Shown: positions 14,555-44,501, numbered from the stretch's first letter. The stretch is 64,000 nucleotides of DNA from a virus (IMGVR_UViG_3300028888_000058:39060-103059), one strand, 5' to 3'. Made by a program: numbers and translations. Notes: generated by a model not told the origin, from the letters alone.

Positions 14555-14624
14555 TTATTATTAAATAAGGGAAAACCGTTATGTGAATAACATTATTTTA
14601 TATCATTTTTATTTTATTTGTCAA

Positions 14625-14668
14625 TAGCATATACTCGAGCGAGAGATATGCTATTGTTTTTTGCTTAA
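14625..14668 (+). terminator. Rho-independent terminator
   Basis: 11-bp stem caatagcatat/atatgctattg followed by ttttttgc. Confidence 0.5.
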
Positions 14669-14729
14669 TTTTGAATATTCTTTAAATTTTTCTATATTAT
14701 TTATATATATTATATAAAAAATAAAAATA

Positions 14730-15083
14730 ATGAAAAAGTATTTTGTATTAGTTTTAATTTCTGTAATGTTATTAACTTCATGTAATCTTTTTGATCAAAA
14801 ACCAGATTACATATTAAAAGAAAATGCTGAATATTACTGGAAAGTACGGTTTAATCCATTTGATAAAGATTCAGTAATTTTAAAATTTCATAAACCAGTT
14901 GAATACATTACAACTGTTAAACAAAAGGGTGGAAAACGAAGAGTTTATTACAATGATTATAATGACCGTTATGTTGCTCAGAGACGCTGTCCTTGGTATC
15001 ATAATGTACATATTGGTGATAAAGTTAAGTTACGTCATAATTTTGAATGTGGTTATGATACATTTGTTGAAGTCGTAAAATAA
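14730..15083 (+). CDS. Lipoprotein
   Basis: Signal peptide plus lipobox LLTSC. Confidence 0.5.
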   Translation: MKKYFVLVLISVMLLTSCNLFDQKPDYILKENAEYYWKVRFNPFDKDSVILKFHKPVEYITTVKQKGGKRRVYYNDYNDRYVAQRRCPWYHNVHIGDKVKLRHNFECGYDTFVEVVK

Positions 15084-15089
15084 GTAGTT

Positions 15090-15584
15090 ATGAGTGGATA
15101 TAATACAATAGAAGAATATAATGAAGCTTTCAGAAAACAATTAAAAGAGACCTGGGAAGCTGAAGTTAAACATTGTCAAAATTGGCTTGATGGTCATTGT
15201 AATTATTCTAAAGTAGGATGGCTTGATACATGTGAAGATGAAAAATATGTAAAAGATAGATTAGTATATTCTCAAAAAATGTTGGATAATATTGATTATT
15301 ATGTTCAGAGGCATTCTTATAGTTACAAGAAGCCACAAACTCAAAAGGATAATGATATGAGTTTTGCTGGTGAAGGACAACATTGGGCATATAGTTCAAA
15401 AATTAGAGTTCCAAGTCTTAAACGTAAATCTGCATGGAAAAGATTTTATAAGATGTTTCCTGATTTGCAAGGAATGAAAACTATTACGGGTAAGTCTTCA
15501 TGTTATGTACAAAATGTAAATGGAGAATATCGCCAGACAATACAAAATTCAAGTACAATTAAATTAAAGAAAATTAAGAAATGA
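15090..15584 (+). CDS. Hypothetical protein
   Basis: ORF only. Confidence 0.4.
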   Translation: MSGYNTIEEYNEAFRKQLKETWEAEVKHCQNWLDGHCNYSKVGWLDTCEDEKYVKDRLVYSQKMLDNIDYYVQRHSYSYKKPQTQKDNDMSFAGEGQHWAYSSKIRVPSLKRKSAWKRFYKMFPDLQGMKTITGKSSCYVQNVNGEYRQTIQNSSTIKLKKIKK

Positions 15585-15817
15585 GGGATTTGAATTTTAG
15601 ACGTAAATCTGAGAAGCTTCATTTAAAACGTCGTAAGATATTAGTCAATACTGTTAAAGATTGGAAACTTAATGATGAACAAGTTAAAGTAACAATGGAA
15701 GATCCTATTAGTTGGTGGGCTAATGAATTTTGGGCAATAAATCAAAAGAAAAGAAATTCACGTAAGATTAGACATCATAATAAAATTAATTTGAAAAAAG
15801 ATTTATATGAGGAGTAG
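15581..15817 (+). CDS. Small highly basic protein; candidate nucleic-acid binder
   Basis: RRKSEKLHLKRRK. TAG stop. Paralogous N-terminus with the next ORF. Confidence 0.4.
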   Translation: MRDLNFRRKSEKLHLKRRKILVNTVKDWKLNDEQVKVTMEDPISWWANEFWAINQKKRNSRKIRHHNKINLKKDLYEE

Positions 15818-16181
15818 AGATTACCGTCGTAAACAAGAGGTAAAACATTTTAAGAAGCGTTTAGATACAGCAGTTTCTATTGGTAGATTTTCAAGTGAGG
15901 AAACAGGTCATAGACCAATGTATGCAGGTAAATATAGAATGTGGAGGATTAAATCTGCAACACCATTAACTTCTGTTGAAAAGGAAATCATGGAGAAACA
16001 ACAATATAAACGTTGGAAGTTTCAGTTAAAGAATGATTCACTTGGTGGAACAATTGATTCATGGGCAAAAAGATGCTGTCGAAGAAATAGACGTCATTAT
16101 CAAAAAATGGTTGATTATAGACTTCCTGATAAAAAATGGTTGGTTCGTGCTCAAGTAATTTATCCAAGAGATATAGTATAG
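15807..16181 (+). CDS. Small highly basic protein, paralog of the previous ORF
   Basis: MRSRDYRRKQEVKHFKKR. TAG stop. Confidence 0.4.
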   Translation: MRSRDYRRKQEVKHFKKRLDTAVSIGRFSSEETGHRPMYAGKYRMWRIKSATPLTSVEKEIMEKQQYKRWKFQLKNDSLGGTIDSWAKRCCRRNRRHYQKMVDYRLPDKKWLVRAQVIYPRDIV

Positions 16182-16184
16182 AAG

Positions 16185-16225
16185 TATAAGTGATTTATGC
16201 TTCTATTTTTTAGTTTATTTAAGTT
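16185..16225 (+). terminator. Putative terminator
   Basis: Stem gaagtat/atgcttc (one G-U pair) followed by attttttag. Confidence 0.4.
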
Positions 16226-16435
16226 ATATTCATATATATTAATTTTATTTTTATATATTAAAGATTGTAAAAATATCTCTTATTGCCTATGGATAATTAT
16301 AGAGGTGTTAAAGCATCAGAGTTAATAAAACAATTAAAAACATATATGAATAAATTTGGAGATTTATATATATGTAAAGAAAAAGGAGGAAATATATTTC
16401 CAATATATTTTATAAATCATTATCCAAACACAGAT

Positions 16436-16516
16436 TATTTTGAATTGACATAATTTATTCAAAACATATAATTTTGAATTGACATAATTTATTCAAAACA
16501 TATAATTTTGAATTAA
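16436..16516. repeat. Tandem direct repeat, about 2.3 copies of a 34-35-bp unit (ttttgaattgacataatttattcaaaacatataa)
   Basis: Read directly. Each unit carries TAATTTTG (TAnnTTTG-like). Sits immediately upstream of the first gene of the CTS array. Confidence 0.7.
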
Positions 16517-16530
16517 CATAAATTAAAAAT

Positions 16531-16983
16531 ATGAAGAATATTAATAAGTACATAACAGAAAAATACAATACAGATAGTATTGAAGAATATTTGGAATCAA
16601 TTGTAAATTCTGCTAAAGGCAAGCCAGATATTTATGATGACACTGAATCTTGGGAAGCACGAGATGAATTTGATTATTGGCAAGATACATCTGGGCAATG
16701 GGATGATATTTTAGAATTTATAGATAAATATGCCTCTAATAAATGTGTAGCTGGATGGAAGAGTAAAGATTCATTTGAAAGCGTTGAAAAACTAGTTCCT
16801 AATATAGTCCGTAATATTATAAAGAAAAAACCAACAGAAATCCCATATAAGAAAAATTCAAATAAAATGGAAATGTGGGAAACTAAACAAGATGATTTTG
16901 ATATTAAAGTGTTAAAGTTCGGAAACTATGTTAATGATAATGGTACCGATTATAAAGAATATTGGTATATGATTGCTATTTAA
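16531..16983 (+). CDS. CTS-tagged hypothetical protein (MKNINKYITE)
   Basis: The N-terminal decapeptide fits the shared motif. Confidence 0.5.
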   Translation: MKNINKYITEKYNTDSIEEYLESIVNSAKGKPDIYDDTESWEARDEFDYWQDTSGQWDDILEFIDKYASNKCVAGWKSKDSFESVEKLVPNIVRNIIKKKPTEIPYKKNSNKMEMWETKQDDFDIKVLKFGNYVNDNGTDYKEYWYMIAI

Positions 16984-30036: not shown

Positions 30037-30585
30037 ATGAATTGGTATTTAATTTTATTTGTGGCAACTTTTGCCATATTTATTGTTAAGCTTTTGATTT
30101 CAGTATTTGCTGGAGATTTTGATTTGGATGTAGATTTTGACGGAGATTCAGATTGTGATACATCAAGTGCGTTTTCATTTAAGGGAGTATTGCATTTCTT
30201 AATGGGATTTAGTGCTTATCTTTGCGGAAGAGTTTATTTATATCCTATTAATTTAACTACAGATAATGGTTATGTAACATTTAGTTTTTGGGATTATTTT
30301 ATTGCTGGTTTATGCGGAGCAGTTTTAATGATTCTTTTATTCTTATGTTATAAAACTGCAATGAAAGCTAATTGTACTCCAACATTACCTCAAGATAATA
30401 TTAATGGATGTGTAGGTAATATTTATTTAAATCTTGGTAATGGACAATATTCTGTTGAAGCTCATACTGTAGCAGGAACTACGAATGTGGATGCATTTTA
30501 CACTTCAGATGATTTGGAAATTGGAACTGAAGTAAAGTTAAATAAAGAAGGCGATAAGATTTTAATTTCTTGTATAGATAAATGA
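30037..30585 (+). CDS. NfeD-like membrane protein (YuaF/YqiJ-type), putative flotillin partner
   Basis: N-terminal TM helices plus a C-terminal beta-rich segment GNIYLNLGNGQYSVEAHTVAGTTNVDAFYTSDDLEIGTEVKLNKEGDKILISCI resembling the NfeD OB-fold domain. Sits immediately upstream of the flotillin gene. Confidence 0.45.
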   Translation: MNWYLILFVATFAIFIVKLLISVFAGDFDLDVDFDGDSDCDTSSAFSFKGVLHFLMGFSAYLCGRVYLYPINLTTDNGYVTFSFWDYFIAGLCGAVLMILLFLCYKTAMKANCTPTLPQDNINGCVGNIYLNLGNGQYSVEAHTVAGTTNVDAFYTSDDLEIGTEVKLNKEGDKILISCIDK

Positions 30586-30737
30586 AAGTAAAAGATATTT
30601 TTGGTATTAAAGGATTAGGAACAGTTGTAACTGTACCATTAATTTTATGGGTAGGATCATTAACTTGTAAAATGGTATATGATTATAAAGTATTAAAATA
30701 TTTAAAAAATATTAATAAAAAAATATAAATAAATTAT

Positions 30738-30929
30738 ATGAAGCTAAGGGAATTATTTGATTATATTTGGAATGAATTAGAAATTCCTGTAACTAAATTG
30801 GAAATTCAAAATGGAGTTAATAATTTGTGTGATAATATAAGATATGAAATTAATAAATTAGAACAGGAAGAGGAACAGAAAAAACAAATTAATTATAAAA
30901 GATATCCGAATTCATATTCTATATATTAA
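30738..30929 (+). CDS. Hypothetical small protein
   Basis: ORF only. Confidence 0.3.
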   Translation: MKLRELFDYIWNELEIPVTKLEIQNGVNNLCDNIRYEINKLEQEEEQKKQINYKRYPNSYSIY

Positions 30930-30991
30930 TAATTGAATTAAGAGAGTATTAATATATAATTTTAAACGTTTAATTTTAATTTTTTTAAAAA

Positions 30992-33016
30992 ATGAGTGAA
31001 CAATTATTTACATTGATTTTGATTGGTGGAGCTGTATTGCTCGGTATTATTACCATTTGGGCGATTCTTTCTAGATATCGTCGTTCTGCACCAGATGAAC
31101 TTTTGGTTGTGTTCGGTAAATCTGGAAAGATGAAGGTTGAAGGTGAAGATGGTAAGGAGAAGACTATTGTAGTTCCATCTAAGATTATTCAGGGTGGTGG
31201 TGCATTTGTATGGCCTATCATTCAAGATTACAAAAAGATGTCAATGGCACCTATTCAGATTAAGGTAACTGTTGACGGTATTGATTCTCAGGCTATTCCT
31301 ATGCACTTGCCTGTTGTATTGACTACAGCTATTAGTAGGGATAAGGAAATTCAACAGAACGCTGCAACAAGATTCTTAAGTGCTAAATCTGAGGAAATTC
31401 ACAAGCAGGTATCTGAAATCCTTGTTGGTGAGACACGTGCTATTATGGCAACAATGCTTATTGAGGAAATTAACGCAGAACGTGATAAGTTCTTGAATAA
31501 GGTTCGTGGATCACTTGAGCAGGAGTTGGCTAAGGTTGGTTATGATGTTACTAACATTAACATTTCAGAAATTACTGATGATGCTAATTACATTAAGAAC
31601 TTAGGTCAGAAGGCTGCTACTAAGGCACAGGCTAACGCTGAGGCAGATATTGCTGAACAGAGGAAGCAAGGTAATGTTAAGATCGCAAACACTAAGAAGG
31701 AAGAGGAAATTCAGGTTGCTGCAGCTACTAAGGAGCAGGAGGTAACTGTTAATGAAACAAAACAGGAGCAGGAAGTTCGAGTTGCAGAGATTCAAAGAGA
31801 TAAGGAAATTAAACTTGCTGAGGCTGCTAAGGAACGTGAGTCTGGTATTGCAACTCAAGAAGCTGAAAAGGCTGCTAATATTGCTGAGGCACAGGCTGAT
31901 GCAGAATCAAAGAAAGCAACTGCTAAGGCTCGTCAGATTTCAGCTGTAGCTAAGGCACAGGCTGAAGCAGAATCAAATAAGGCAGGTTCTGAGGCAGAAC
32001 AGATGAAGAATATCGCTAAGTATGAGGCAGATGCTGAAGCTACCAAGAATGAACAGGAAGCACAGAAGTTGATTCGTGTTGCTAAGGCTAATCAGGAGAA
32101 GGAAGCAGAAACTATTAAGGCAATACAGGAAAAGGAATCTAAGGCTGCAGAATATGAATCTGAGAAACGTAAGCGTAAGGCAGAAGCTGATAAGAAAGCT
32201 GGTGTCGCAGAACAGATTGCAAAGATTGAAGTTGCTGAGGCTACTGCTAAGGCAGGTAAGGCGGAAGCTGATGCTAAGAAGGTGAAGGAAACTGCTATGG
32301 TTGATGCAGAGATGTCGGTTGCTAAAACCAAGCAAGAGAGACAGTTGGAAGTTAACAAGGCACAGGCTGCTGCTGCAGAGGAGCAATTAAATGCTACTGA
32401 AATCGTACCTGCTCAGAAAGCTAAGGAGAAGGCAGTTATTGAGGCTGAGGCAATTAAACGTAAGGCAGAACTTGAGGCTGAAGCTGTTAAAGCTCAATTA
32501 TTGAGAAAGGCTGAGGCTGAGGCTGAAGCAACTCGTATTAAGTTAAATGCTGAGGCAGAAGGTATTAAGAATAAGTTAATGGCTGAGGCTGAAGGTAAGA
32601 GAGCAAGTTTGATGGCTGAGGCGGAAGCATTACAGCAGAAGGAATTGGCACCTGCTATGGCATTTGAGAAAATGGTAGAGGTTGCAGGTGGTCGCCCAGA
32701 TTTGGCTGTACAATGGAAGACTGTTGATCATCTTGAAGGTATCGCTGGTGCTCAGGCCGAAGCTTTATCAAAAATATCTTTGGGCCACGTTATGGTATAT
32801 GGTGATTCTTCTACTGGTGGTAAGTTTATTAAGGATCTTATGGCTAACGTAACTCCTGCTATTGATATGATCTCAACTGGTATGAAGACTCCTATCAAGA
32901 ATCTTTTGGGAATGACCGATGATAAGAAGGAGCTTAATGCACCAGAAGAGCAACAGATTAATGAAGATAAGAAAAAGAGAAATAAGAAAACTGATAACTT
33001 CGAGGAAGTTAAGTAA
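30992..33016 (+). CDS. Flotillin-like SPFH (band-7) protein
   Basis: N-terminal TM, an SPFH-like domain and about 350 aa of Ala/Glu-rich coiled coil (EAEAE, AKAQAEAE repeats), as in FloT/YuaG. GC-richer codon usage. Confidence 0.65.
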   Translation: MSEQLFTLILIGGAVLLGIITIWAILSRYRRSAPDELLVVFGKSGKMKVEGEDGKEKTIVVPSKIIQGGGAFVWPIIQDYKKMSMAPIQIKVTVDGIDSQAIPMHLPVVLTTAISRDKEIQQNAATRFLSAKSEEIHKQVSEILVGETRAIMATMLIEEINAERDKFLNKVRGSLEQELAKVGYDVTNINISEITDDANYIKNLGQKAATKAQANAEADIAEQRKQGNVKIANTKKEEEIQVAAATKEQEVTVNETKQEQEVRVAEIQRDKEIKLAEAAKERESGIATQEAEKAANIAEAQADAESKKATAKARQISAVAKAQAEAESNKAGSEAEQMKNIAKYEADAEATKNEQEAQKLIRVAKANQEKEAETIKAIQEKESKAAEYESEKRKRKAEADKKAGVAEQIAKIEVAEATAKAGKAEADAKKVKETAMVDAEMSVAKTKQERQLEVNKAQAAAAEEQLNATEIVPAQKAKEKAVIEAEAIKRKAELEAEAVKAQLLRKAEAEAEATRIKLNAEAEGIKNKLMAEAEGKRASLMAEAEALQQKELAPAMAFEKMVEVAGGRPDLAVQWKTVDHLEGIAGAQAEALSKISLGHVMVYGDSSTGGKFIKDLMANVTPAIDMISTGMKTPIKNLLGMTDDKKELNAPEEQQINEDKKKRNKKTDNFEEVK

Positions 33017-33036: not shown

Positions 33037-33072
33037 ATAAAGAAAGGATACTATTTAATAGTATCCTTTTTT
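33037..33072 (+). terminator. Rho-independent terminator
   Basis: aggatactatttaatagtatcct followed by ttttttatt. Confidence 0.55.
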
Positions 33073-33121
33073 TATTATTTTTATATATAATGATATTAAA
33101 AATATTAAATAATATATAAAG

Positions 33122-34794: not shown

Positions 34795-37170
34795 ATGCCT
34801 AATTATGAATCTAATGGTGTCTTATTTAAAAATGTTACCGCTGGTTTGAACACTGGTGGCCAAAAAATAAATAAAGCACCATATAAGTATGAAAATGGAA
34901 ATATCAAAAATCCCCAATTAATTATAAATGCAATTGATATTGATTGGAATAACGCTGAAGTTCCTGGATTGGATGATGACATTATTTCAACAGCAATGTT
35001 CTTAAGTACTATTGGTAATATTAATGAAACATCAAAACAATTAGTAAGAAAAACACAAGAATTAGAAACTGGTTTAAATAATTTATCGGATCATACAAGT
35101 GAAGTTGAAGAATCTTTAGGTACATTAGCAGAAAATGTTGATAATGCAGATCGTAGATTACAGCAATCAATTAATGAAAAAATATCAACAACAGAATTTA
35201 ATGAACGTGTTGAAGAAATTGTTAATCAAATAGGTCCTAAAGAGACTTATAAGCATATTATATTAACACAAGAAGAATATGAAGCATTAGAAGAATATGA
35301 AGAAGATGCTTTATATATGGTTATTGATGATGGAGTTCCAACACCACCGCCAACTCCTGTACCTACAGATCCATTTGAAGATATTAGTACAAACTTAAAT
35401 GTTTCTTATGTTGATGAAAATGGAGATATACAAGAAACTATATACACAACAGATGGTAAGATATCATTAGCGCCACAAAAGTCTTATACATTAGAAGGAA
35501 CATTAATTGGATCAATTGAAATTGACACATCATCATTATCTAAAGTTAATAATGATACTGAACTTATATTAAATAATGTACGTATATTATCAGATACAGA
35601 TAATGCAATTTTATATAAGATACCTGAAAATGCAAAAGCTCAGAAATCACTTAAGATAACATTATCACCTAATGTTGAAAACTATATATATTGCACATTA
35701 ACTGCAGAAAATACAGATGATCAACCTGGTGCAATATATTCAATGAATAATCTTAACATTCAAGGCGCAGGTTATTTATCAATTAAGACCAAATCAGGTC
35801 ATGGTATTCGTGCTGATGTTCTTAATTTAGGTGGTCCTCATATTTGGATCAATTCACCACATGATGGTATACATGGTAGAGATATACATATAATTGGCGG
35901 TGTATATAGCATGAATGGGTGTAATGATGCAATTGGTACTAGCAATTCTGGTAGAGTATTATTCTATGATGGCATATTATATACAAGTAATTTAAAACAA
36001 AATATTATAGATAGTAAAAACAAAGGATTATATTTCTCAGAAGATTTATTAACATCAGCACAATTACAAAGCTGTAATAATATGTATTTATTATCTGAAC
36101 AAAATTATAAATCAATATTTGGAAATATAACTGGATCTATTCAATTATTACCAGGTCAACCAGATTTTGATTATGATGAAAATACAACAGGAACTCCAAT
36201 AGAATTAGATGAAGCTACAGATACTTATATAATTTCTAATACTAAAGGAAATAAAGGAAAATATATTTTAGCAACAGGATATATTAATAAACCAATACAA
36301 TTTGATGGCTATGGTAATCAAAATGGAGATAATGTAACATTATATTTAAATAATGCATTTATAGATACATATAATAATCCAGATTTAAGTAATGGTGGTA
36401 ATGTACCATCTGTTTATTATTCTTCAGAAGGATCAAATATAAAAATAATGGCAGTTCAAGATTCTATAAATGTTATTAGAAATAATTATACATCTACAGG
36501 AATTGATGCCATTAATTTTGAAAGTGATTGTGTAAAATCTGAAAATAACTTAGAAATTGAACTTAAGAATAACTCATATTTGTATATATCATCGTTAAAA
36601 GCTGATGGATTAGATGGTGGTGAAACTAAAATTACTGATTCTAAAGGAAACATAATTATAACAAAATGTGGTCAACGTGGTATAAAAGGTAATGCAGTTG
36701 TTATTGGACCTGATGCAAATATATCATTAAAGAGCAATATTGAACAATATTACACAAAAGAATTTGTTGAAGAACATAATAGATTAAATCCAACAGATCA
36801 AATAAAATATACTACATTTGATGGTATATGTTATGTTAAGAATAATTGTAAAGTATTTATGCCAGAAATAGCAAATGGTTTATCTGATACTGATAAGAAA
36901 AATAGTGGTTTTGCTGATATATATGGAAGAAATGGTAAAGCTACAAGAGGTATTATTGGATTTACAACTTTAGAATTAGTTGGTGTATGTATAACTGGAT
37001 CAATGTGTTCTGTTTCTACAATTAATATGGGTAGTGCAAAAAGATTATATTATAATGAAATTATTAAATCAAATGATACTATTCAAAATCCTATTCCATT
37101 AACTGGTTCTCCAAGAATACTTAATGAAGTTGATCCAACAGATGAATCTAAAAATGTAGTTGATTTTTAA
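34795..37170 (+). CDS. Putative tail fibre or tailspike with a beta-helix (pectin-lyase-fold-like) region
   Basis: PTPPPTPVPTDP linker. Repetitive segments such as NLGGPHIWINSPHDGIHGRDIHIIGGVYSMNGCNDAIGTSNSG are typical of parallel beta-helix depolymerases. Confidence 0.4.
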   Translation: MPNYESNGVLFKNVTAGLNTGGQKINKAPYKYENGNIKNPQLIINAIDIDWNNAEVPGLDDDIISTAMFLSTIGNINETSKQLVRKTQELETGLNNLSDHTSEVEESLGTLAENVDNADRRLQQSINEKISTTEFNERVEEIVNQIGPKETYKHIILTQEEYEALEEYEEDALYMVIDDGVPTPPPTPVPTDPFEDISTNLNVSYVDENGDIQETIYTTDGKISLAPQKSYTLEGTLIGSIEIDTSSLSKVNNDTELILNNVRILSDTDNAILYKIPENAKAQKSLKITLSPNVENYIYCTLTAENTDDQPGAIYSMNNLNIQGAGYLSIKTKSGHGIRADVLNLGGPHIWINSPHDGIHGRDIHIIGGVYSMNGCNDAIGTSNSGRVLFYDGILYTSNLKQNIIDSKNKGLYFSEDLLTSAQLQSCNNMYLLSEQNYKSIFGNITGSIQLLPGQPDFDYDENTTGTPIELDEATDTYIISNTKGNKGKYILATGYINKPIQFDGYGNQNGDNVTLYLNNAFIDTYNNPDLSNGGNVPSVYYSSEGSNIKIMAVQDSINVIRNNYTSTGIDAINFESDCVKSENNLEIELKNNSYLYISSLKADGLDGGETKITDSKGNIIITKCGQRGIKGNAVVIGPDANISLKSNIEQYYTKEFVEEHNRLNPTDQIKYTTFDGICYVKNNCKVFMPEIANGLSDTDKKNSGFADIYGRNGKATRGIIGFTTLELVGVCITGSMCSVSTINMGSAKRLYYNEIIKSNDTIQNPIPLTGSPRILNEVDPTDESKNVVDF

Positions 37171-37394: not shown

Positions 37395-40300
37395 ATGGGT
37401 CTTTATACAGGAAGTTTAAATGAATTTATTGATTGGATATCTAATAGAGATATAATAACTAATAGAAAAACAATAGTTGACACAATTAGTGGTGGATCAA
37501 TTCGTGAATTATTACAGAGTCATTTACGTAAGCCATTTTATGTTCACGAAGATATTGATAATAATAGAAAACTATTGTTCTCAAGTGAAGAATCTAAGAT
37601 TAGATATTTTAAAGCAGTAGAAGAAGCGGGTGGTAATGAAAATGCCATAGCTCAAAAATATAAAGATTTAGTATTACTTGAATTTGATATCCCTGCACCT
37701 CATAAGATTATTTGTGTAGGGGAAAATGATGAAGTACTTAAAACAATGAATATTTTAAGTGGTAGTGCTCGTCAAATGATTAAGTTTAAAGTATATATTG
37801 ATGATAAAACTAGTGGACTTAACTCAAGTTATGAAGTTAAATTTAAACTTGTAGGACCTAATAATCAAGTTACATACGAAGATGTTCGTACTTATGATAG
37901 TACTAGTACAACAGACGTACAGTTATTTGACTGTTTTGATTATTTGCAAACAGGTTCAAATACATTAACATTATCTATAAGATTAACTGGTGATATATCT
38001 GCAGAAAAAATTAACCCACAAATTCCTATTAATATTATTAGTTATAATATATCAGCAGAATATGCTACATCTAATTGGTTTGATCCAATTTCTATTGGTT
38101 CTAACCTTCCTATTAATATGATAGTTAATAGAAGTATTTCAACTCCTGTTTCACAGACAATTTCATATTACATAGATGATTATTCTAATCCTAAAGGAAC
38201 AATAACAAAAAATATTGAAGGATTACGTGTTGCTACTTCATTAACAATTCCTAACGATATTATTAGAGAATGTGTTTGGCCACAATCTGGTACAGAAGAA
38301 AGTATGCATCCTAAGCATTATCTATTAATCAAAGGTAATATGTCAACAACAGATAATAGTATTAACTTTGATTCTAATTCATTACTTTATGAATTTATAA
38401 CTCAATCTGATGAACAAGAAGAATTAAATAACCACTTTATAATCATTAAACTATCTATACCTGCTGGTTCTTTACAGACATCAAATGGTATGGAAGGAAT
38501 TTATTTGACTGGTATTCAATATGAAGAGTTTATATTAGACTGGGCATATTTCACAAATGGTGGTACTGATGCATCTATTAGTGTTGAATGGGAGTTATGT
38601 CAATATGATACTGAAACTGGCGAAGTTATTGAAGATTCTAGAACATATTTGGCTACGTTATCAGGTATTAGAAACCAGGTTGCAGAGCCATTAAGATTTG
38701 TTCCAGATCAACCTTATCTAGAATCAGAAAACTGGCATTTGGTTGGTACTGTATTAAGTAATATTAAAGATTCTGAATCTGGAGAACCACGTAGATATAA
38801 AGCATTCGATAGACAAATTATTATTGAAAGATCATCATTTGAATTTGAATTTAATGAATGGGCTGGATATGTATTTAAATTAAATGCTTATGGCCGTACA
38901 AACAGTGAATCTGAAACATCAAGAACTAGATGGATGCCAACAGGTACAATATTGAATACTGCAAATATTCCACAAATGAATTTTTCTCCGTCAATTCCTT
39001 GGGATTCTGCAAATGGATGGTCAAATAATAGTTTGACATTCAATTCAGAAACATGTTTTGGAACAATTAACTTTAATGCATTTCCAAGTGGAAATCAATA
39101 TTTATTAAGTGAATATGGACGTACAATAGAAATTGACTTTATGTCAGGTTCAGTTAATAACGATGAAGATCCATTGATTATAATAGGTGCTAACGGAGAA
39201 ACAAGTAGAACTTATGAAGGGTCTACTCGTACAAATCCTGCGATATATATTTATCCTACAAAGGCGGTTATGTATTCAGGTGCAACTGAAGTCATTAAGA
39301 CAAACTATAAATCTAATGAACGTATTCAGTTAACATTCATATTTATGCCTAATACTGCCATTAAAGATGCTAAAAACGTTTATATTGTTAATAATGGTGT
39401 ACTTGAACGTGGTGCTAACTTAAGTGACCAAACAATAAGTAATGCAAATGGATGGATTAGAATTGGTGGAACAAACTCTCAAATATCTTTATATAATATA
39501 AGAGTTTGGTGGAGAAATATGCCAGTTTATGATGCATTTACAAACTTCTTATTTGATGCTCCTAATAAATCATCAATCATTATTAGAAACTCAATTACAA
39601 AAGGTTCTGGATCATCTGAAATTGATTATGATAGATGCGTATCAAAAATAGATACATTCTTAATATCAGGTAACATTAATAATATATTGACTCCTGGTGT
39701 TAATAAAGAAGATTCTGAAACTCCAGTTAACATTTTATATACAACGCCTTCAGATGGTCAGTATTTAGGATTCAATGCTACCGCAGTTAAAATGAGAAAA
39801 CATGGTCAGTCAACATTGAACTATCCTATTGCTTCATTTAAATTCTGGCTTAACAAATCAAAGGGTGAAAATAATCCACAAGTTGAATTTAAAGATGGTG
39901 TTAAAAACTTAAGGTTAGTTAAGAATAGATATCCTATTAACATAGGTTCAATTCCTTCTAATAAATATGTTTTACAAGCAAACTATGCTGACTCATCTGG
40001 TGTTCATAATGGAGGATTACTTAGATTAATTAATGAAACATGGTATAATGCCCCATTTAAGAAATCAAATGGTGTAATAGAATATAAATTAAGAACTTCT
40101 CCACAGTTATTTACATCTAACCAAACAGTTATTCATAATGATACACTATTAAATGAAGTTGGATCATCTGTATGGACTGATGGATATGGAAATACTGATG
40201 TAGAAATAAATGGAGTAAGCGCAAAAAATCATACATGGGGTGACTTACGTATAGCTGAAACTGGAAATGCACAACTAACAGCATTCCCATATAAGTTACG

Positions 40301-43300
40301 TAATGCTCCTGATTCACGTCCTGCTGTTGTATTCTATACTGATACATCTTCAGCAATACCTACTAAAAAGTTCTTAGGACAATTCGTATTAATGGATGAT
40401 AAGAAATCAGATCATATATTTGGCGAACGTTCTATTTATCTTTGGGGTGATGGTAATGATCCATTCTGTATGACAACAGAAGGTGCAGATACTCCAGTAA
40501 TTATAAATGGTAAGACTAAAAAAGGATATGACCAAGATGAATTCTGTGTTTGGGATAATAAACGTGTATTAAGAATTGAATGCGTACTTATTAACACTCC
40601 ATTAACATCATTCATGGATTTTAATGTACCTAATGACATTGTTATTGATAAAGACGGTAATACTGAAGATGATCAAACATTTACAAATGATCATGCCGCT
40701 TCAGATATTAAATATGAAACAGATCCTTCAACTGGAGAATTCATACTTGATGAAAATGGTAATAAGAAACCATTGAACTATTACTGGGAAGACTATTTTG
40801 AAATGATATTCCCTGATGAAGATGATATTTCTGAAGATGATGCTGCTGAGAATTTAAATAAATTTAGTGGTGTTCATAAGACTCCAGAACAAGCAGCAGA
40901 TCCAAATTATAAATGGCCAGAAGGAACATCTAAGTTCATTAAGAAAGCACAACCATGGATAGATTTCTTGAGATGGATCTGTTCAATAGGACAGCTTAAT
41001 AAAGATTCACAAGGAAACCCAATTATAAATGGCAATGTTTCTACAGCAGCATTAAATAAATTTAAATCTGAAGCACATGACCACTTAGATCTTTATAAGT
41101 TAGCTGCTTATTATATATTCTACATAAGATTTGGTCTTGTTGACTCTGTAGAACGTAATGCTCAATATAAAACATATGATGGATTACACTGGTTCTTAGA
41201 GCCATGGGATATGGATATCGCATTAGGTAATAAGAATACTGGTGGTCTTGCATTTGATCCTCCTATGGACCGTACAACAATGCTTGATGCTACATCACAG
41301 ACATATGCATATTCAGGAAGATCAAAAACTACTTCTAATGTTCTATGGGATTGCTTAGAAAAATGGGATTATTGGAGAGATGTAATTGTTCCTGAAACTG
41401 CACAAGCATTATATGAAGGTGGATTGACATACGATAAGATAACAGAAATGTTTGATAACAATTTTGCTAATAAATGGGCAGAATTAGTATATAATGAATC
41501 TGGTATGTATAAGTACGTAGAAAAAGCTCAGGATGCTACATGGCTTAACTGGTTACAAGGATCTCGTACTTCACACCGTCACTGGTGGATATCTACATCA
41601 ATGAACTATTATGATTCTAAATGGACTTGTGGACAGTTTAATTCATCAAGAATATATATGGCTGTTGATAAACCTCAAGGAACTGAAGCTATCATAACAG
41701 TTGTGCCTACATCTGAATCATATTTTAAATTGACACAGATGGATACTACATTAAATAGAGGATTATATAGAGCTACCAAATCTTCTCCTGCAAGATGGGA
41801 TGCTACAAACTGGTCATTCTCTACAAAAGACCCATCACACTTATTTGGTGCATTATTCATGGAGAAGATTGACTTGGATGTATTTGGACAAGGATTACAA
41901 GTATTATCATTCCAAAATGCAGTTGACCCAGTATTAGGAGCAACTATTAAAGAATTAAGTATAGGTAGTAGATTGCCTGAAGACTTAGAAAGTCCAAGTA
42001 GAACGCAATTCACTGGATGGATTCATAAGGTAGCTCCAAGTATAACAAACTCTTCATCTACAACTTCTGAAGATGATTCTGAAGGAGCACCAGATGCATT
42101 AGAAAACATTATAACATATAATATAACAGGACAACTTGGCCTTAAGGATGGTGATATAATAAAATCTAATAGAGCAAAACTAAAGAACATATATGCTATA
42201 GGTACTGGATTTACAACATTGACTTCTTCTGCATTAGGAAACGTATATGAAAACGTCCATTTGCCAGGAAGAACTTTAGAAAATACTGGATCTACTGTAA
42301 AAACAACACCTGGCGTTATTAGTATTAATGTTACTAATACATCATGGAAAAACATAACATTCTGGGAAACATCATATAACTCATCAGGTACTGAAAGAGT
42401 TCCTTATGAAATTAATGGGGAAGTACAGAGAGATGAGAATGGAGATATCATATATATAGAAAATCCTACTGTAGCTACATTTAAAAAGATGAATAGAATT
42501 CCTAAAGAATTTAAATCATTGACATTCAAAGGATCTACTGCTAATAATGTATGTACATTAGAATTTGTATTAGATTGGTTTAATTCTATTGAATATTATG
42601 TTAGTCAAGACAATCCTGAATTATCTGGAGATGCATTAGAACGTAAAGTACTTGAATATATTGGTAATAATTGCACCGCATCATTAGATAATATTAGATG
42701 GAACTATAATAAGTCATTTAATGATCCTGACTATAGACCAATAACATATAAAGATGTAGTAAGATTAGGATACCTAAACGGAATGCCTGATGAAAATGGA
42801 ATTGGCGTAAACTGGGGTACAAATTCATCATTAAAAGGATATGTTAAAATTGAAGGTGAGAATATGAAACCTGCGCAATTAACTGAATTATCTAACTTAT
42901 TTGGTGAAAATGTATTTACTTTAAGTAATATTAACTCTAACTTAGTTATTGACCAAGAAAGTAACTATGCTCAGATTTCAGTATCAGGAAACATACATAT
43001 AGAAACAGATACAACAACCGGTGAATCTATAATCGTTGCTAATGAAGGATCATTGATTAAATTTAAATGTACATCATTCTTACTTTCTTCTGAAAGTGTT
43101 GAAAATTATGTATGGACAATCAATGGAGCTGAAGGAAACACATTCGAAAATGCTCCTGATGGATTTACAAGAAATCTTATATTAGATCAAACAACAAAAC
43201 CTGAAAGATATACTATTACTATTACTGCAACAAAAATAGGTGATCAATCAATTAATTCATCAGTAATTGTATATATAGATCCTACAATAACTGCTCGTGA

Positions 43301-44501
43301 CTTTAAGTTTGAACCTGTAAACGGTCGTGATGTTAGACGATTCATATGTGACGAAGTAACTGCTCGTAATATGTTCGGAAATAATGCTATGGTAAATGGT
43401 CAGCTTAGAGACATATTCATCATTCCTAAAGGTGGAATGCAACAAGAATTTAAGTTAGATACTACTACAGAATTTGATGCTACAATACATAGTGTAAGTT
43501 TCAGAATTGGGGCAATCAATAACTCATTACCTATCAGAGAAACTGCATCAACAGGATGGACAGGAAATGAATTATCAGTTAATGATTCAACTGAATATTA
43601 TGTAACTACTAATGAAGTAGCAGATGGAGAATTAATTAAAGTATTGACAACAGCCGATAGTTATATCAATCGTACTAAGAAGGTAGTTAATGGCATATTG
43701 ACTGGTGTTCGTAATAGTATTAAGTTTAAGACATGTGATGACATAACATTATTCAATACCACTTGTGAAGATATGAAATACTTTACATTATATGGAAGTG
43801 TCAAATATAATTCTCCAAGTATCGGCACTCATACATATGCATGCAATATCATATTATATGATGATTCTAACTTCATATTGTCGCAAAGCTCTAAAGCATT
43901 CGCACCTATATTAAGAAAGCTTAAGGAATATAATACAGAATACTATAGTCCTATAACATCATTATATAAGTCAGACCTATCAGTATTAAACGGAACATTA
44001 GATTTTAAAGATGACCAAGGAAACACAATAGATATGGCAAATGATGCACAGTCATTTATCGCATCTGGTAAAAATGAAAGCATATTCAATTATATGCCTA
44101 ACATACAGATACTTGACTTTACAGGATTAACATATAACTTTGAAGATTTTGCTACACAAGGAAAACAATACTTTAATATGAAAAAGTTAAGATCATTAAA
44201 TAAACTGATATTAAAGGACTGTCCTGCAACAAGTATGGATCTACTTATTGAGAATAGCTCAACAATACAAGAATTAGACTTAAGTGGAAACTGTAATGCT
44301 GGTCTTATTTGTAAAAATAATCCTGCATTAACTACAATAAGTCTAGGTAAACCAAGTTTAATAAACATATCTGACTGTGCAAGTTTAACAAATAATGGTG
44401 TAACAATAACAGATAACTCATTGGTTAATAGTATTGATTTGAAATCAACATCTACAGACAGTTTGATAATGTTTAAGCTATTAAATAAATTCTTGGCATA
44501 A
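37395..44501 (+). CDS. Giant virion-associated protein (2368 aa); putative fibre or adhesin
   Basis: Uninterrupted 7.1-kb ORF next to the tail-fibre paralogs. No recognisable catalytic motif. Confidence 0.55.
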   Translation: MGLYTGSLNEFIDWISNRDIITNRKTIVDTISGGSIRELLQSHLRKPFYVHEDIDNNRKLLFSSEESKIRYFKAVEEAGGNENAIAQKYKDLVLLEFDIPAPHKIICVGENDEVLKTMNILSGSARQMIKFKVYIDDKTSGLNSSYEVKFKLVGPNNQVTYEDVRTYDSTSTTDVQLFDCFDYLQTGSNTLTLSIRLTGDISAEKINPQIPINIISYNISAEYATSNWFDPISIGSNLPINMIVNRSISTPVSQTISYYIDDYSNPKGTITKNIEGLRVATSLTIPNDIIRECVWPQSGTEESMHPKHYLLIKGNMSTTDNSINFDSNSLLYEFITQSDEQEELNNHFIIIKLSIPAGSLQTSNGMEGIYLTGIQYEEFILDWAYFTNGGTDASISVEWELCQYDTETGEVIEDSRTYLATLSGIRNQVAEPLRFVPDQPYLESENWHLVGTVLSNIKDSESGEPRRYKAFDRQIIIERSSFEFEFNEWAGYVFKLNAYGRTNSESETSRTRWMPTGTILNTANIPQMNFSPSIPWDSANGWSNNSLTFNSETCFGTINFNAFPSGNQYLLSEYGRTIEIDFMSGSVNNDEDPLIIIGANGETSRTYEGSTRTNPAIYIYPTKAVMYSGATEVIKTNYKSNERIQLTFIFMPNTAIKDAKNVYIVNNGVLERGANLSDQTISNANGWIRIGGTNSQISLYNIRVWWRNMPVYDAFTNFLFDAPNKSSIIIRNSITKGSGSSEIDYDRCVSKIDTFLISGNINNILTPGVNKEDSETPVNILYTTPSDGQYLGFNATAVKMRKHGQSTLNYPIASFKFWLNKSKGENNPQVEFKDGVKNLRLVKNRYPINIGSIPSNKYVLQANYADSSGVHNGGLLRLINETWYNAPFKKSNGVIEYKLRTSPQLFTSNQTVIHNDTLLNEVGSSVWTDGYGNTDVEINGVSAKNHTWGDLRIAETGNAQLTAFPYKLRNAPDSRPAVVFYTDTSSAIPTKKFLGQFVLMDDKKSDHIFGERSIYLWGDGNDPFCMTTEGADTPVIINGKTKKGYDQDEFCVWDNKRVLRIECVLINTPLTSFMDFNVPNDIVIDKDGNTEDDQTFTNDHAASDIKYETDPSTGEFILDENGNKKPLNYYWEDYFEMIFPDEDDISEDDAAENLNKFSGVHKTPEQAADPNYKWPEGTSKFIKKAQPWIDFLRWICSIGQLNKDSQGNPIINGNVSTAALNKFKSEAHDHLDLYKLAAYYIFYIRFGLVDSVERNAQYKTYDGLHWFLEPWDMDIALGNKNTGGLAFDPPMDRTTMLDATSQTYAYSGRSKTTSNVLWDCLEKWDYWRDVIVPETAQALYEGGLTYDKITEMFDNNFANKWAELVYNESGMYKYVEKAQDATWLNWLQGSRTSHRHWWISTSMNYYDSKWTCGQFNSSRIYMAVDKPQGTEAIITVVPTSESYFKLTQMDTTLNRGLYRATKSSPARWDATNWSFSTKDPSHLFGALFMEKIDLDVFGQGLQVLSFQNAVDPVLGATIKELSIGSRLPEDLESPSRTQFTGWIHKVAPSITNSSSTTSEDDSEGAPDALENIITYNITGQLGLKDGDIIKSNRAKLKNIYAIGTGFTTLTSSALGNVYENVHLPGRTLENTGSTVKTTPGVISINVTNTSWKNITFWETSYNSSGTERVPYEINGEVQRDENGDIIYIENPTVATFKKMNRIPKEFKSLTFKGSTANNVCTLEFVLDWFNSIEYYVSQDNPELSGDALERKVLEYIGNNCTASLDNIRWNYNKSFNDPDYRPITYKDVVRLGYLNGMPDENGIGVNWGTNSSLKGYVKIEGENMKPAQLTELSNLFGENVFTLSNINSNLVIDQESNYAQISVSGNIHIETDTTTGESIIVANEGSLIKFKCTSFLLSSESVENYVWTINGAEGNTFENAPDGFTRNLILDQTTKPERYTITITATKIGDQSINSSVIVYIDPTITARDFKFEPVNGRDVRRFICDEVTARNMFGNNAMVNGQLRDIFIIPKGGMQQEFKLDTTTEFDATIHSVSFRIGAINNSLPIRETASTGWTGNELSVNDSTEYYVTTNEVADGELIKVLTTADSYINRTKKVVNGILTGVRNSIKFKTCDDITLFNTTCEDMKYFTLYGSVKYNSPSIGTHTYACNIILYDDSNFILSQSSKAFAPILRKLKEYNTEYYSPITSLYKSDLSVLNGTLDFKDDQGNTIDMANDAQSFIASGKNESIFNYMPNIQILDFTGLTYNFEDFATQGKQYFNMKKLRSLNKLILKDCPATSMDLLIENSSTIQELDLSGNCNAGLICKNNPALTTISLGKPSLINISDCASLTNNGVTITDNSLVNSIDLKSTSTDSLIMFKLLNKFLA

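Follow-up and report, generated by a model that had tools for sequence, protein, structure and literature searches.

The window, a 64,000-nt stretch of DNA, belongs to an AT-rich huge myophage (genome GC ~0.27) with a T4-like Gp23-like capsid, an S77 prohead protease, a sheath and a helicase as phage markers. Related contigs reach 460 kb, and together they form a clade of huge AT-rich myophages of ~190-460 kb. The source habitat of the clade is gut or rumen. The window contains no Rfam matches and no tRNAs. Two neighbouring ORFs, with exactly the boundaries given in the initial annotation, lie on the plus strand and share it with the structural block: one encodes a 182-aa membrane protein (30037..30585), and the other a 674-aa flotillin-type SPFH protein (30992..33016), recognized through matches to Band_7, FloT, PDB and Bacteroides sequences. 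All features described below are on this plus strand.

The flotillin begins with a hydrophobic membrane anchor (residues 5-27; 31004..31072), which is followed by RYRR, aligns with the anchors of E. coli YqiK and the Bacteroides flotillin, and would be succeeded by a cytoplasmic SPFH domain. This SPFH/Band 7 domain (residues 36-224; 31097..31663) passed the profile search, matching Pfam PF01145 with E=1.4e-21 and a score of 77.8 bits where the cutoff is 23.6, and insert mapping located a clade-specific 12-aa insertion in it at residues ~50-61. The sole NCBIfam match was FloT (NF058507), at 127 bits and thus below the equivalog cutoff of 700. All significant PDB profile matches were to flotillin-2 (E=1e-21) or flotillin-1 (E=1e-19), and the closest annotated relatives are named 'flotillin family protein'. 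By these three measures the protein is nearer to flotillins than to the stomatin, HflK/C or prohibitin subfamilies; judged from such matches, it is a member of the flotillin family without the status of a FloT equivalog. The best solved-structure match, eukaryotic flotillin-1/2 (PDB 9bq2 and 9l3g; E=1e-21), covers the SPFH domain along with a portion of the helical region. The eukaryotic complex differs in having no NfeD partner, in its mode of anchoring (acylation or a hairpin) and in its shorter helical wall, and it serves as the template for a putative cage- or dome-like oligomer of the phage protein.

Behind the SPFH domain lies an Ala/Glu/Lys-rich helical (coiled-coil) region (residues 225-564; 31664..32683), delimited by AF2 secondary structure only, in which ~360 residues (203-564) are predicted to form a near-continuous helix. 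Because the AF2 monomer model was poor (pLDDT 56), its secondary structure alone was used, fold search and geometry being beyond it, and oligomer geometry was assumed from homologues. The protein contains 16.7% Ala, 13.2% Glu and 12.3% Lys, and self-BLASTP detected no internal duplication in the coiled coil. Compared with cellular homologues, the helical region has ~100 extra residues, with inserts spread over ~272-378 and 536-560, and flotillins of the phage clade measure 629-708 aa versus 524-566 aa for cellular ones. The initial reading of an N-terminal TM segment, an SPFH domain and an Ala/Glu coiled coil was thus borne out, but its description of the coiled coil as exceptionally long was not: a length of 674 aa is unexceptional, since SPFH2 proteins of 800-1000 aa have already been described (PMC2636767). 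The C-terminal domain (residues 565-640; 32684..32911), defined by Bacteroides conservation and invariant columns, precedes a variable charged tail. Mean column identity across the flotillin alignment is 73%.

The AF2 model of the 182-aa upstream protein (pLDDT 79.9) has three TM helices, and its C-terminal part folds into a beta-domain of five strands. TM helix 1 (residues 3-25; 30043..30111) carries the invariant K18 and leads into an acidic alternating loop, DxDxDxDGDxD (residues 26-41; 30112..30159), which has low pLDDT, contains the invariant residues D31, D33, D39 and D41, and occurs in the Bacteroides and Persicobacter homologues as well. TM helices 2 and 3 (residues 48-68 and 84-112; 30178..30372), defined by the AF2 model and conservation, are linked by a short beta-hairpin loop. 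In the SFKGxLHFxxG motif, conservation among 76 diverse members of the family is 90% or more at K49, G50, H53, F54 and G57. The C-terminal domain (residues 126-179; 30412..30573) is an NfeD-C-like, all-beta OB-fold of the PH0471/YuaF kind. Short NfeD proteins are described as having ~140-190 aa and three N-terminal hydrophobic stretches (PMC2636767), and the length and helix positions of the phage protein agree with this short NfeD/NfeD2 layout.

Scans of the 182-aa protein against Pfam, NCBIfam, PHROG and PADLOC returned nothing, PF01957 NfeD at its gathering threshold included, and its profile had no meaningful match among PDB sequences. Scans of single family members gave just chance TM-protein matches and sub-threshold NfeD matches, the latter in 4 of the 76 members (best E=0.0015). 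However, an NCBI-annotated Bacillus NfeD, taken as a control, scored only 17 bits on PF01957, also below the cutoff of 29.1, so this model is insensitive to the NfeD2-type partner subtype. Profile-profile comparison with hhalign aligned the partner profile (A4) to B. thuringiensis NfeD with 96.2% probability (E=2.4e-9 over 68 C-domain columns) and to the YbbJ family with 43% probability (E=2.5e-4), where the YbbJ-based NfeD profile is of low diversity, containing enterobacterial sequences only. Moreover, the gene is found directly upstream of flotillin and on the same strand in 14/14 loci with differing flanks. Fold, profile-profile comparison and invariant synteny therefore support an NfeD-like partner, in line with the NfeD/YuaF-like layout of TM segments and C-terminal beta-domain noted at the outset. 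Sources of family members name them 'NfeD family protein' or 'NfeD-like C-terminal domain' and, for one phage-family member, 'DUF1449'; the family comprises 247 clusters at 50% identity, is unannotated and has no Pfam model.

Two cellular systems resemble this arrangement. E. coli YqiJ (DUF1449) is likewise a membrane protein encoded upstream of a flotillin, YqiK, in which TM1 is followed by an alternating acidic/His loop and the C-terminus forms an OB domain, but it has no significant sequence or profile similarity to the phage partner family, and YqiK is only about 21% identical to the window flotillin (26% over 461 aa). Membership of the partner in YqiJ/DUF1449 was rejected, since the hhalign comparison with E. 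coli YqiJ was not significant and the layout alone is similar; YqiJ_N (PF21001) and YqiJ_OB (PF07290) matched none of 27 + 76 partner-family members, and the control, E. coli YqiJ, matched both. In the Bacillus YuaF(NfeD2)-YuaG(FloT) pair, SPFH2a/NfeD2a of Hinderhofer et al. 2009, flotillin identity is only ~27%, and YuaF does not align with the N-terminal membrane part of the phage partner, which bears the acidic DxDxD loop and the SFKGxLHF motif.

Between the two genes is a 406-nt spacer, compared with 19-455 nt in relatives. The partner had been called the canonical operon partner of the flotillin; its place directly upstream held at every locus, but with a 406-nt spacer containing a 63-aa ORF, a tight operon, or co-transcription of the pair, is at most a possibility in the window genome. 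The 63-aa ORF (30738..30929) is an uncertain gene and no conserved part of the module. It is 87% identical in one relative (L008), conserved in its N-terminal 28-38 aa alone in L011-L014 and absent where the spacer is 19-33 nt, and profile scans gave no family matches for it. The flotillin upstream region (30933..30979) has a sigma70-like TTGAAT-16-TATAAT site and a GTTTAATTTTAA motif but lacks a Shine-Dalgarno sequence. The GTTTAATTTTAA motif recurs upstream of flotillin in relatives; as a shared late or general promoter it was rejected, the motif not being enriched in the window. As, in addition, sigma70-like sites are not above chance in such AT-rich DNA, both are at most putative promoter elements. 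Just past the flotillin stop codon, an intrinsic-terminator-like hairpin with an 18-bp stem and a U-run (33037..33075) folds as RNA at -23.6 kcal/mol (z=-6.5), and 0 of 200 shuffles fold as well.

Codon usage in the flotillin gene is unusual (GC 0.416, GC3 0.321), whereas that of the partner (GC3 0.142) is ordinary; the highly-expressed-type usage at first ascribed to the pair thus applies to flotillin only, and there it is partly capsid-like. Indeed, flotillin shares the capsid-type shifts (AAG, GGT, GCT, CGT and avoidance of ATA) and ranks 2 of 42 genes by structural-versus-background codon log-likelihood, with Lys AAG supplying more than half of the signal. It also has a GAG/CAG/TTG excess that is missing in capsid, and a low classical CAI of 0.60. 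Its GC3 is 2-2.5x the local median in all AT-rich relatives, although dS exceeds 1. Codon use in the Bacteroides host flotillin is 7% for GAG and 40% for AAG, and GAG reaches 43% in the phage gene; hence the phage bias was not inherited from the host. These data show that the bias is maintained by selection. Counting the GC3 excess, the codon rank and the strong terminator of the gene itself, they suggest an abundant protein during infection. The bias matches that of structural genes only in part and could have a cause other than expression level.

In no fewer than 13 independent contigs of different sample origin, among them IMG/VR viral contigs of 376-435 kb, phage genes flank the pair, which is shown to be fixed in the clade of huge AT-rich myophages. 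Purifying selection acts on both genes, with a dN/dS of 0.05 for flotillin and 0.27 for the partner. A GC of 0.41-0.43 against ~0.27 for the genome looks foreign at first sight and, with one close homologue in a 'Methanobrevibacter' MAG, might point to mis-assembled host DNA or to a recent passenger gene without phage function. We consider this extremely improbable given the many independent assemblies, the purifying selection and the fully phage-like composition of the adjacent partner gene, and the pair is taken to be phage-borne, as initially annotated, and no host chimera. The MAG contig, the sole genome-contig match, is only 5.9 kb long and AT-rich, so it is probably mis-binned. A single-protein pattern scan of the genomes of 185,579 species, blind to relatives at ~40% identity, found no close cellular copy, and the nearest host homologue, found via a plasmid collection, is only ~40% identical.

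The initial annotation had further held that flotillin operons are not an expected phage gene. Flotillin-type genes are indeed rare in phages (9 of 50,697 phage records), and neither megablast of the region against GenBank phages nor tblastn of the partner against phages gave a match. Nevertheless, the statement was too strong: SPFH/Band 7 ORFs of the T4-like phages 44RR, Aeh1 and RB43 were reported in 2006 (PMC1524935), the GenBank phages csAssE-Sib and KIT04 have annotated flotillins, and a viral 'NfeD-like' homologue of the partner is already in UniProt/BFVD. The T4-like ORFs and PHROG 200, which the window flotillin matches with E=2e-7, are likewise SPFH proteins of large myophages, but those ORFs are weak, non-flotillin SPFH matches and are absent from the tblastn matches to the window flotillin.

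The nearest host homologue found is a Bacteroides operon of the same two genes, with order and strand as in the phage. In B. finegoldii, a gene for a hypothetical 165-aa protein (WP_007757712.1) lies 21 nt upstream of that for a 548-aa flotillin (WP_007757713.1). The 165-aa protein is a full-length member of the phage partner's family (hhalign 100% probability, E=2.8e-46; the Persicobacter partner gave E=2e-29), and the Bacteroides flotillin aligns end to end with the phage one, through anchor, SPFH domain, helical region and C-terminal domain, at 37-40% identity. The phage pair differs in being virus-encoded, in its 406-nt instead of 21-nt spacer, in its very different codon usage and in a flotillin that is ~125 aa longer, owing to the helical-region inserts and the 12-aa SPFH insert. 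On sequence comparison, the pair is thus shown to be homologous as a unit to a chromosomal Bacteroidota operon. This homology is the main new result. Together with ~40% identity to the nearest host homologue and saturated dS within the clade, it indicates that the pair is an old capture from Bacteroidota hosts and not a recent one, the possibility that the initial annotation had raised for phylogenetic testing. In the tree, the phage flotillin clade is sister to a group of Bacteroides and csAssE-Sib. We regard the identity and origin of the module, taken together, as highly probable, and the finding makes Bacteroidota the likely hosts of the clade, which is uncultured.

The same phage-borne pair, in the same order, occurs in a ~175-kb gut Caudoviricetes genome carrying DAI39861.1 and in csAssE-Sib (OR575929; human gut, 151 kb), where the genes are annotated as 'transmembrane protein' and 'flotillin family protein'. 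The csAssE-Sib flotillin shares 63-71% identity with its Bacteroides counterpart but only ~40% with that of the window; it is of normal length (566 aa), has no codon bias relative to its own genome and lies amid replication genes. The csAssE-Sib pair is thus a capture of its own, later than that in the window's clade.

Scaffolds of flotillin and NfeD form a membrane-organising system that is widespread but poorly understood. SPFH2-NfeD2 operons co-evolve and are transferred jointly, and B. subtilis yuaFGI belongs to the envelope-stress sigma-W regulon (PMC2636767); FloA-NfeD is an ATP-independent stabiliser of unfolded proteins (PMC11222466). From synteny and by analogy with FloA-NfeD and YuaF-FloT (PMC11222466, PMC2636767), we infer that the partner binds and stabilises flotillin, presumably through its OB-fold domain. 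In the mechanism that we propose, with membrane steps drawn from flotillin and HflK/C cage structures and from the YuaF/FloT and FloA-NfeD studies, the N-terminal anchor of flotillin would enter the host inner membrane from its cytoplasmic face, and the extended helical region would drive oligomerisation into large domes or cages. The partner, held in the membrane by its three TM helices, would dock its cytoplasmic OB domain on flotillin and so stabilise the oligomer. Such a scaffold may supplement or replace the host flotillin system, keeping the membrane and membrane-associated proteins functional through a long huge-phage infection until programmed lysis. Weighing identity and role together, a host-derived, phage-maintained flotillin/NfeD2-type membrane scaffold is a reasonably probable description of the module; its specific role as an abundant, auxiliary membrane-homeostasis or holdase scaffold is put forward tentatively, at somewhat under even odds. 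The module suggests that management of the host cell membrane is part of the phage's infection. The searchable literature yielded no functional study (expression, localisation or phenotype) of flotillin or NfeD encoded by a phage, and the Perkons paper deals solely with an attachment site in a host floA.

Two further explanations accept a phage function but place it elsewhere, and we consider either of them improbable. Flotillin microdomains might organise inner-membrane sites for T4-like prohead initiation or for docking of replication or packaging complexes. T4 proheads initiate on the inner membrane, and the phage has the T4-type Gp23-like capsid and S77 prohead protease; moreover, the pair shares its strand with the structural block, the codon bias is partly capsid-like, and in one relative (L002) only ~3.6 kb separate the pair from the protease and capsid genes downstream. 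However, this structural-gene synteny is not conserved, the flanks being unrelated in another relative (L003) and the csAssE-Sib pair lying elsewhere, and flotillin is missing from the majority of T4-like and jumbo phages, Lak and PAU among them, so that it is not required for the T4-like assembly pathway. Alternatively, the module might be a conflict device that repairs or shields the membrane against Abi effectors, cages host FtsH or other membrane proteins, or blocks superinfection. Huge phages are rich in counter-defence genes, and a stoichiometric shield would fit high abundance. Precedents also exist: FtsH is enclosed and regulated by SPFH cages of the HflK/C sort, and PspA is tied to stressed membrane by SPFH proteins (PMC8581546, PMC2636767). 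Yet neither protein matched any family of the PADLOC-DB models, profile scans and the flanks of relatives revealed no recognisable defence or anti-defence genes beside the pair, and the flotillin dN/dS of 0.05 is atypical for arms-race proteins; furthermore, HflK/C-type SPFH domains face the periplasm, whereas those of flotillins do not (PMC2636767).

In a more ambitious reading, which we think unlikely, flotillin builds a larger SPFH cage, specific to the phage, on the inner membrane of the host, with a function beyond that of the host system. It would build on the ~100 extra residues of the helical region and on expression that is probably at capsid level. Such a cage might enclose membrane compartments in which very large capsids are assembled under protection, or might repair or shield the membrane from depolarising abortive-infection effectors and control lysis timing; if real, it would be the first viral 'membrane-microdomain organiser'.

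A whole clade of huge gut or rumen phages has thus retained the flotillin/NfeD pair over long evolutionary time, and at least one other gut phage lineage acquired this operon in an independent capture. That the operon was captured more than once and kept for so long implies that control over host-membrane organisation or membrane-protein stability pays for large phages, and membrane homeostasis would thereby join the host functions taken over by huge phages. In addition, the 247-cluster family is now defined as the Bacteroidota-type NfeD2 partner, a definition that can be used for better annotation.

The two genes of the pair lie on the plus strand at 30037..30585 (the NfeD-like partner, 182 aa) and 30992..33016 (the flotillin, 674 aa), exactly as placed in the initial annotation, and are separated by a spacer of 406 nt. 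The DNA of the window is that of a phage: nearly all of its genes are on one strand, and they encode a Gp23-like major capsid protein, a prohead protease, a long tail sheath, a helicase, an RNA ligase and a dNMP kinase. The capsid protein shows only 31-37% identity to its closest deposited relatives. These relatives come from a 462-kb uncultured huge phage, Sphingomonas phage PAU and the Prevotella Lak megaphages, and further ones from jumbo phages of Tenacibaculum, Chryseobacterium and Flavobacterium. GC content is 0.41-0.43 in the 31-33 kb interval and ~0.25 to both sides. A chimeric assembly with host DNA, raised initially as an alternative, is now excluded; a 435,272 bp IMG/VR viral contig encodes a flotillin 98% identical to that of the window, and further flotillin-bearing contigs are 188-460 kb long.

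Profile searches bore out the SPFH assignment, which does not depend on coiled-coil similarity. Residues 36-224 of the flotillin matched Pfam Band_7/SPFH with 77.8 bits (cutoff 23.6), and its only NCBIfam match was the FloT model (127 bits versus an equivalog cutoff of 700). Eukaryotic flotillin-2 (E=1e-21) and flotillin-1 (E=1e-19) were the only significant matches among solved structures, and identity to E. coli YqiK was 26% across 461 aligned residues. Residues 5-27 are hydrophobic and followed by RYRR, and the SPFH domain is followed by ~360 residues of near-continuous predicted helix and then a conserved C-terminal domain. The AF2 monomer model was poor (pLDDT 56), and its secondary structure alone was used. 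The coiled coil had been described as exceptionally long, but a length of 674 aa is unexceptional because SPFH2 proteins of 800-1000 aa are on record (PMC2636767). The flotillins of the huge-phage clade (629-708 aa) are nevertheless longer than the cellular flotillins compared (524-566 aa), the extra length consisting of a 12-aa insert in the SPFH domain, about 75-80 aa scattered over residues 272-378 and a 22-aa insert near residues 536-560, with no detectable internal duplication.

The partner matched none of the Pfam, NCBIfam, PHROG and PADLOC models. It is a member of a large unannotated family, with 92 close metagenomic homologues; when 1.84 billion representatives were searched with a profile, 247 clusters (50% identity) emerged, almost all of proteins 160-190 aa long. 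Shared by the family are a TM helix at the N-terminus, a loop of alternating acidic residues (DxDxDxDGDxD), the near-invariant segment SFKGxLHFxxG, another TM helix and a C-terminal beta-domain. In the AF2 model of the partner (34-sequence alignment, pLDDT 79.9), residues 126-179 form a beta-domain of five strands, and three helices are transmembrane. When a 76-member partner alignment was compared by hhalign with a Bacillus thuringiensis NfeD, annotated as such by NCBI and encoded upstream of a FloT-type flotillin, the C-domains matched with 96.2% probability (E=2.4e-9); the E. coli YbbJ family matched at E=2.5e-4. As a control, the same B. thuringiensis NfeD scored 17 bits on Pfam NfeD (cutoff 29.1), and therefore the failure of the partner to match Pfam reflects low sensitivity of the model for flotillin-associated NfeD2 proteins. 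Source labels of family members include 'NfeD family protein [Saprospiraceae]' and 'DUF1449 [Caudoviricetes sp.]', and the top BFVD structural match was a gut-virus 'NfeD-like C-terminal domain-containing protein' (E=1.3e-13, full length). The profile-profile comparison settles the assignment to an NfeD-type partner, and the independently given labels agree with it. Membership in the YqiJ family was rejected, being supported by neither the Pfam YqiJ models nor hhalign; E. coli YqiJ resembles the partner in overall layout only. The acidic loop (residues 26-41; 30112..30159) is invariant in the partner family and contains a DxDxDG-like stretch resembling calcium-binding loops, and the predicted TM helices contain conserved charged residues K18 (30088..30090), K49 (30181..30183) and H53 (30193..30195). 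Both the loop and these residues are shared with the Bacteroides homologue, whereas YuaF lacks them.

At every locus with upstream sequence (13 metagenomic or IMG/VR loci and the GenBank gut phage csAssE-Sib), profile searches of six-frame ORFs placed the partner immediately upstream of the flotillin on the same strand, with spacers of 19 to 455 nt and varying flanking genes; the pair is fixed in the huge-phage clade. The window's spacer contains a 63-aa ORF (30738..30929, +) without a family match, which is 87% conserved in L008, the closest relative with available DNA, is represented in relatives L011-L014 by its N-terminal 28-38 aa alone and is missing where the spacer is 19-33 nt; it is an uncertain, candidate gene only. 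In most relatives a GTTTAATTTTAA-like motif precedes the flotillin start codon by 10-25 nt (window 30968..30979; equivalent positions in L008, L009, L010, L002 and L016). Elsewhere in the window this motif shows no enrichment (6 matches versus 4.5 expected); it may serve the regulation or translation initiation of this gene specifically.

Among 185,579 species genomes, no close copy was found save on one 5.9-kb, 31% GC contig (CACYVR010000057.1) of the rumen MAG 'uncultured Methanobrevibacter sp. RUG12316', whose flotillin (546-2666) is 82% identical to that of the window; this contig is probably mis-binned DNA of a huge phage, and its flotillin gene not archaeal. The best match in a plasmid collection was a Bacteroides finegoldii record (NZ_OY725925.1; PLSDB 'Bacteroides finegoldii plasmid 23', 177 kb), which looks like a wrongly labelled chromosomal fragment because it carries housekeeping genes (truA, purC, ubiE and aroE; phoH is also present). 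Phocaeicola massiliensis record OY726012.1 may be a similar case. In B. finegoldii, a 165-aa hypothetical gene lies 21 nt upstream of a 548-aa flotillin gene, and its product belongs to the phage partner family over its full length (hhalign 100% probability, E=2.8e-46), as does that of the ORF preceding the Persicobacter flotillin (E=2e-29). In a trimmed 496-column alignment, the huge-phage flotillins formed a single clade (68-88% mutual identity) sister to Bacteroides plus csAssE-Sib (~40% identity), and were more distant from Persicobacter (~32%), Bacillus FloT (~27%) and YqiK (~21%). The pair is accordingly an operon of Bacteroidota that phages captured as a unit, anciently in the huge-phage lineage and a second time, later, in csAssE-Sib-like gut phages of 150-180 kb; the Bacteroides and csAssE-Sib flotillins are 71% identical. 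Recent capture from the host, considered in the initial annotation, is thus not borne out for the huge-phage clade. The flotillin of Vibrio phage KIT04 is more distant again, and no partner of ~180 aa accompanies it. Four short (1.5-20 kb), unannotated 'Enterococcus phage'/'Listeria phage' records (OR846627, PQ520226, OR849508 and OR847422) contain flotillin fragments ~30% identical to that of the window and look like host DNA submitted as phage sequence.

Both genes are under purifying selection, the flotillin having a dN/dS of 0.05 and the partner one of 0.27 against L008; dS exceeds 1 between more distant clade members. Highly-expressed-type codon usage had been ascribed to both genes, and this held for the flotillin but not for the partner. 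The flotillin has the highest GC3 of the 42 window genes (0.321, versus 0.259 for the capsid, 0.142 for the partner and 0.06-0.23 for others), the excess extending over its SPFH, helical and C-terminal parts. In every AT-rich relative its GC3 is 0.24-0.39 against local medians of 0.11-0.17, while that of the partner is at background. Because synonymous sites are saturated in the clade, the co-captured partner has fully ameliorated to phage composition and the codons of the Bacteroides flotillin are quite different (GAG 7%, AAG 40%), the bias is maintained by selection and is not leftover host composition. By structural-versus-background codon log-likelihood, the flotillin ranked 2nd and the partner 32nd of 42 genes, with Lys AAG contributing over half of the flotillin's signal. 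The flotillin shares AAG, GGT, GCT, CGT and ACT and avoidance of ATA with the capsid, but differs from it in an excess of GAG/CAG/TTG and in lacking its preference for ATC and TTC, which explains a low classical CAI (0.60). High expression of the flotillin is the most economical reading of this partly capsid-like usage. Past its stop codon lies a highly stable hairpin (z=-6.5) with a U-run, and a sigma70-like site upstream was no better than chance in AT-rich DNA. No Shine-Dalgarno sequence was found within 100 nt upstream of any of 13 inspected window genes (e.g. 30992, 49821, 51666 and 53703), whose leaders are all A/T-rich; this lack points to a Bacteroidota-type host, as do a capsid protein related to those of PAU, Tenacibaculum and Lak phages and the Bacteroidota source of the module.

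In S. aureus, NfeD binds and stabilises FloA and the complex holds unfolded proteins without ATP (PMC11222466), and in B. subtilis the envelope-stress sigma-W regulon includes the yuaFGI operon (PMC2636767). By analogy with its family, the phage flotillin would have its anchor in the cytoplasmic leaflet of the host's inner membrane, and its helical region would mediate oligomerisation into dome-like assemblies of the kind seen in flotillin complexes 9bq2 and 9l3g, while the OB domain of the partner may bind and stabilise the oligomer. The best explanation for the module is an abundant, phage-made scaffold for membrane homeostasis or protein holding, which would keep the membrane and membrane-associated proteins functional during a long, high-load infection. 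Two rival readings are a scaffold for membrane-bound prohead assembly and a conflict device, which would repair the membrane against abortive-infection effectors, cage FtsH or exclude superinfecting phages.

Listings of SPFH ORFs in phages go back to 2006 (PMC1524935), and databases already contain automatic annotations of phage flotillins and of a viral NfeD-like protein. Our literature search found no paper discussing or testing a phage-encoded flotillin/NfeD pair, and the pair is not mentioned in papers on jumbo/huge phages, including the Jug gut phages (360-402 kb, 27-30% GC, Bacteroides/Phocaeicola hosts). The module has the defining features of SPFH2/NfeD2 operons, except for the FloT equivalog cutoff and the Pfam NfeD gathering score; what sets it apart is its context, deep conservation, likely abundance and clade-specific helical expansion.

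Downstream of the flotillin, 34795..37170 (+) encodes a probable tail fibre or depolymerase of 791 aa that carries a Cthe_2159 carbohydrate-binding domain, and 37395..44501 (+) is a giant 2368-aa ORF matching PHROG 14959 (unknown function). The coding strand switches at ~58.5-59.8 kb, with genes from 59819 on, including the helicase, on the minus strand, and the cumulative GC skew reverses near 59 kb. Translation and proteostasis genes are frequent in huge phages, and a related 188-kb phage contig (L003) encodes an eIF-1a/IF1-like protein (80-355, -) and a ClpB-like AAA+ chaperone (14192-16834, +) near its flotillin pair.
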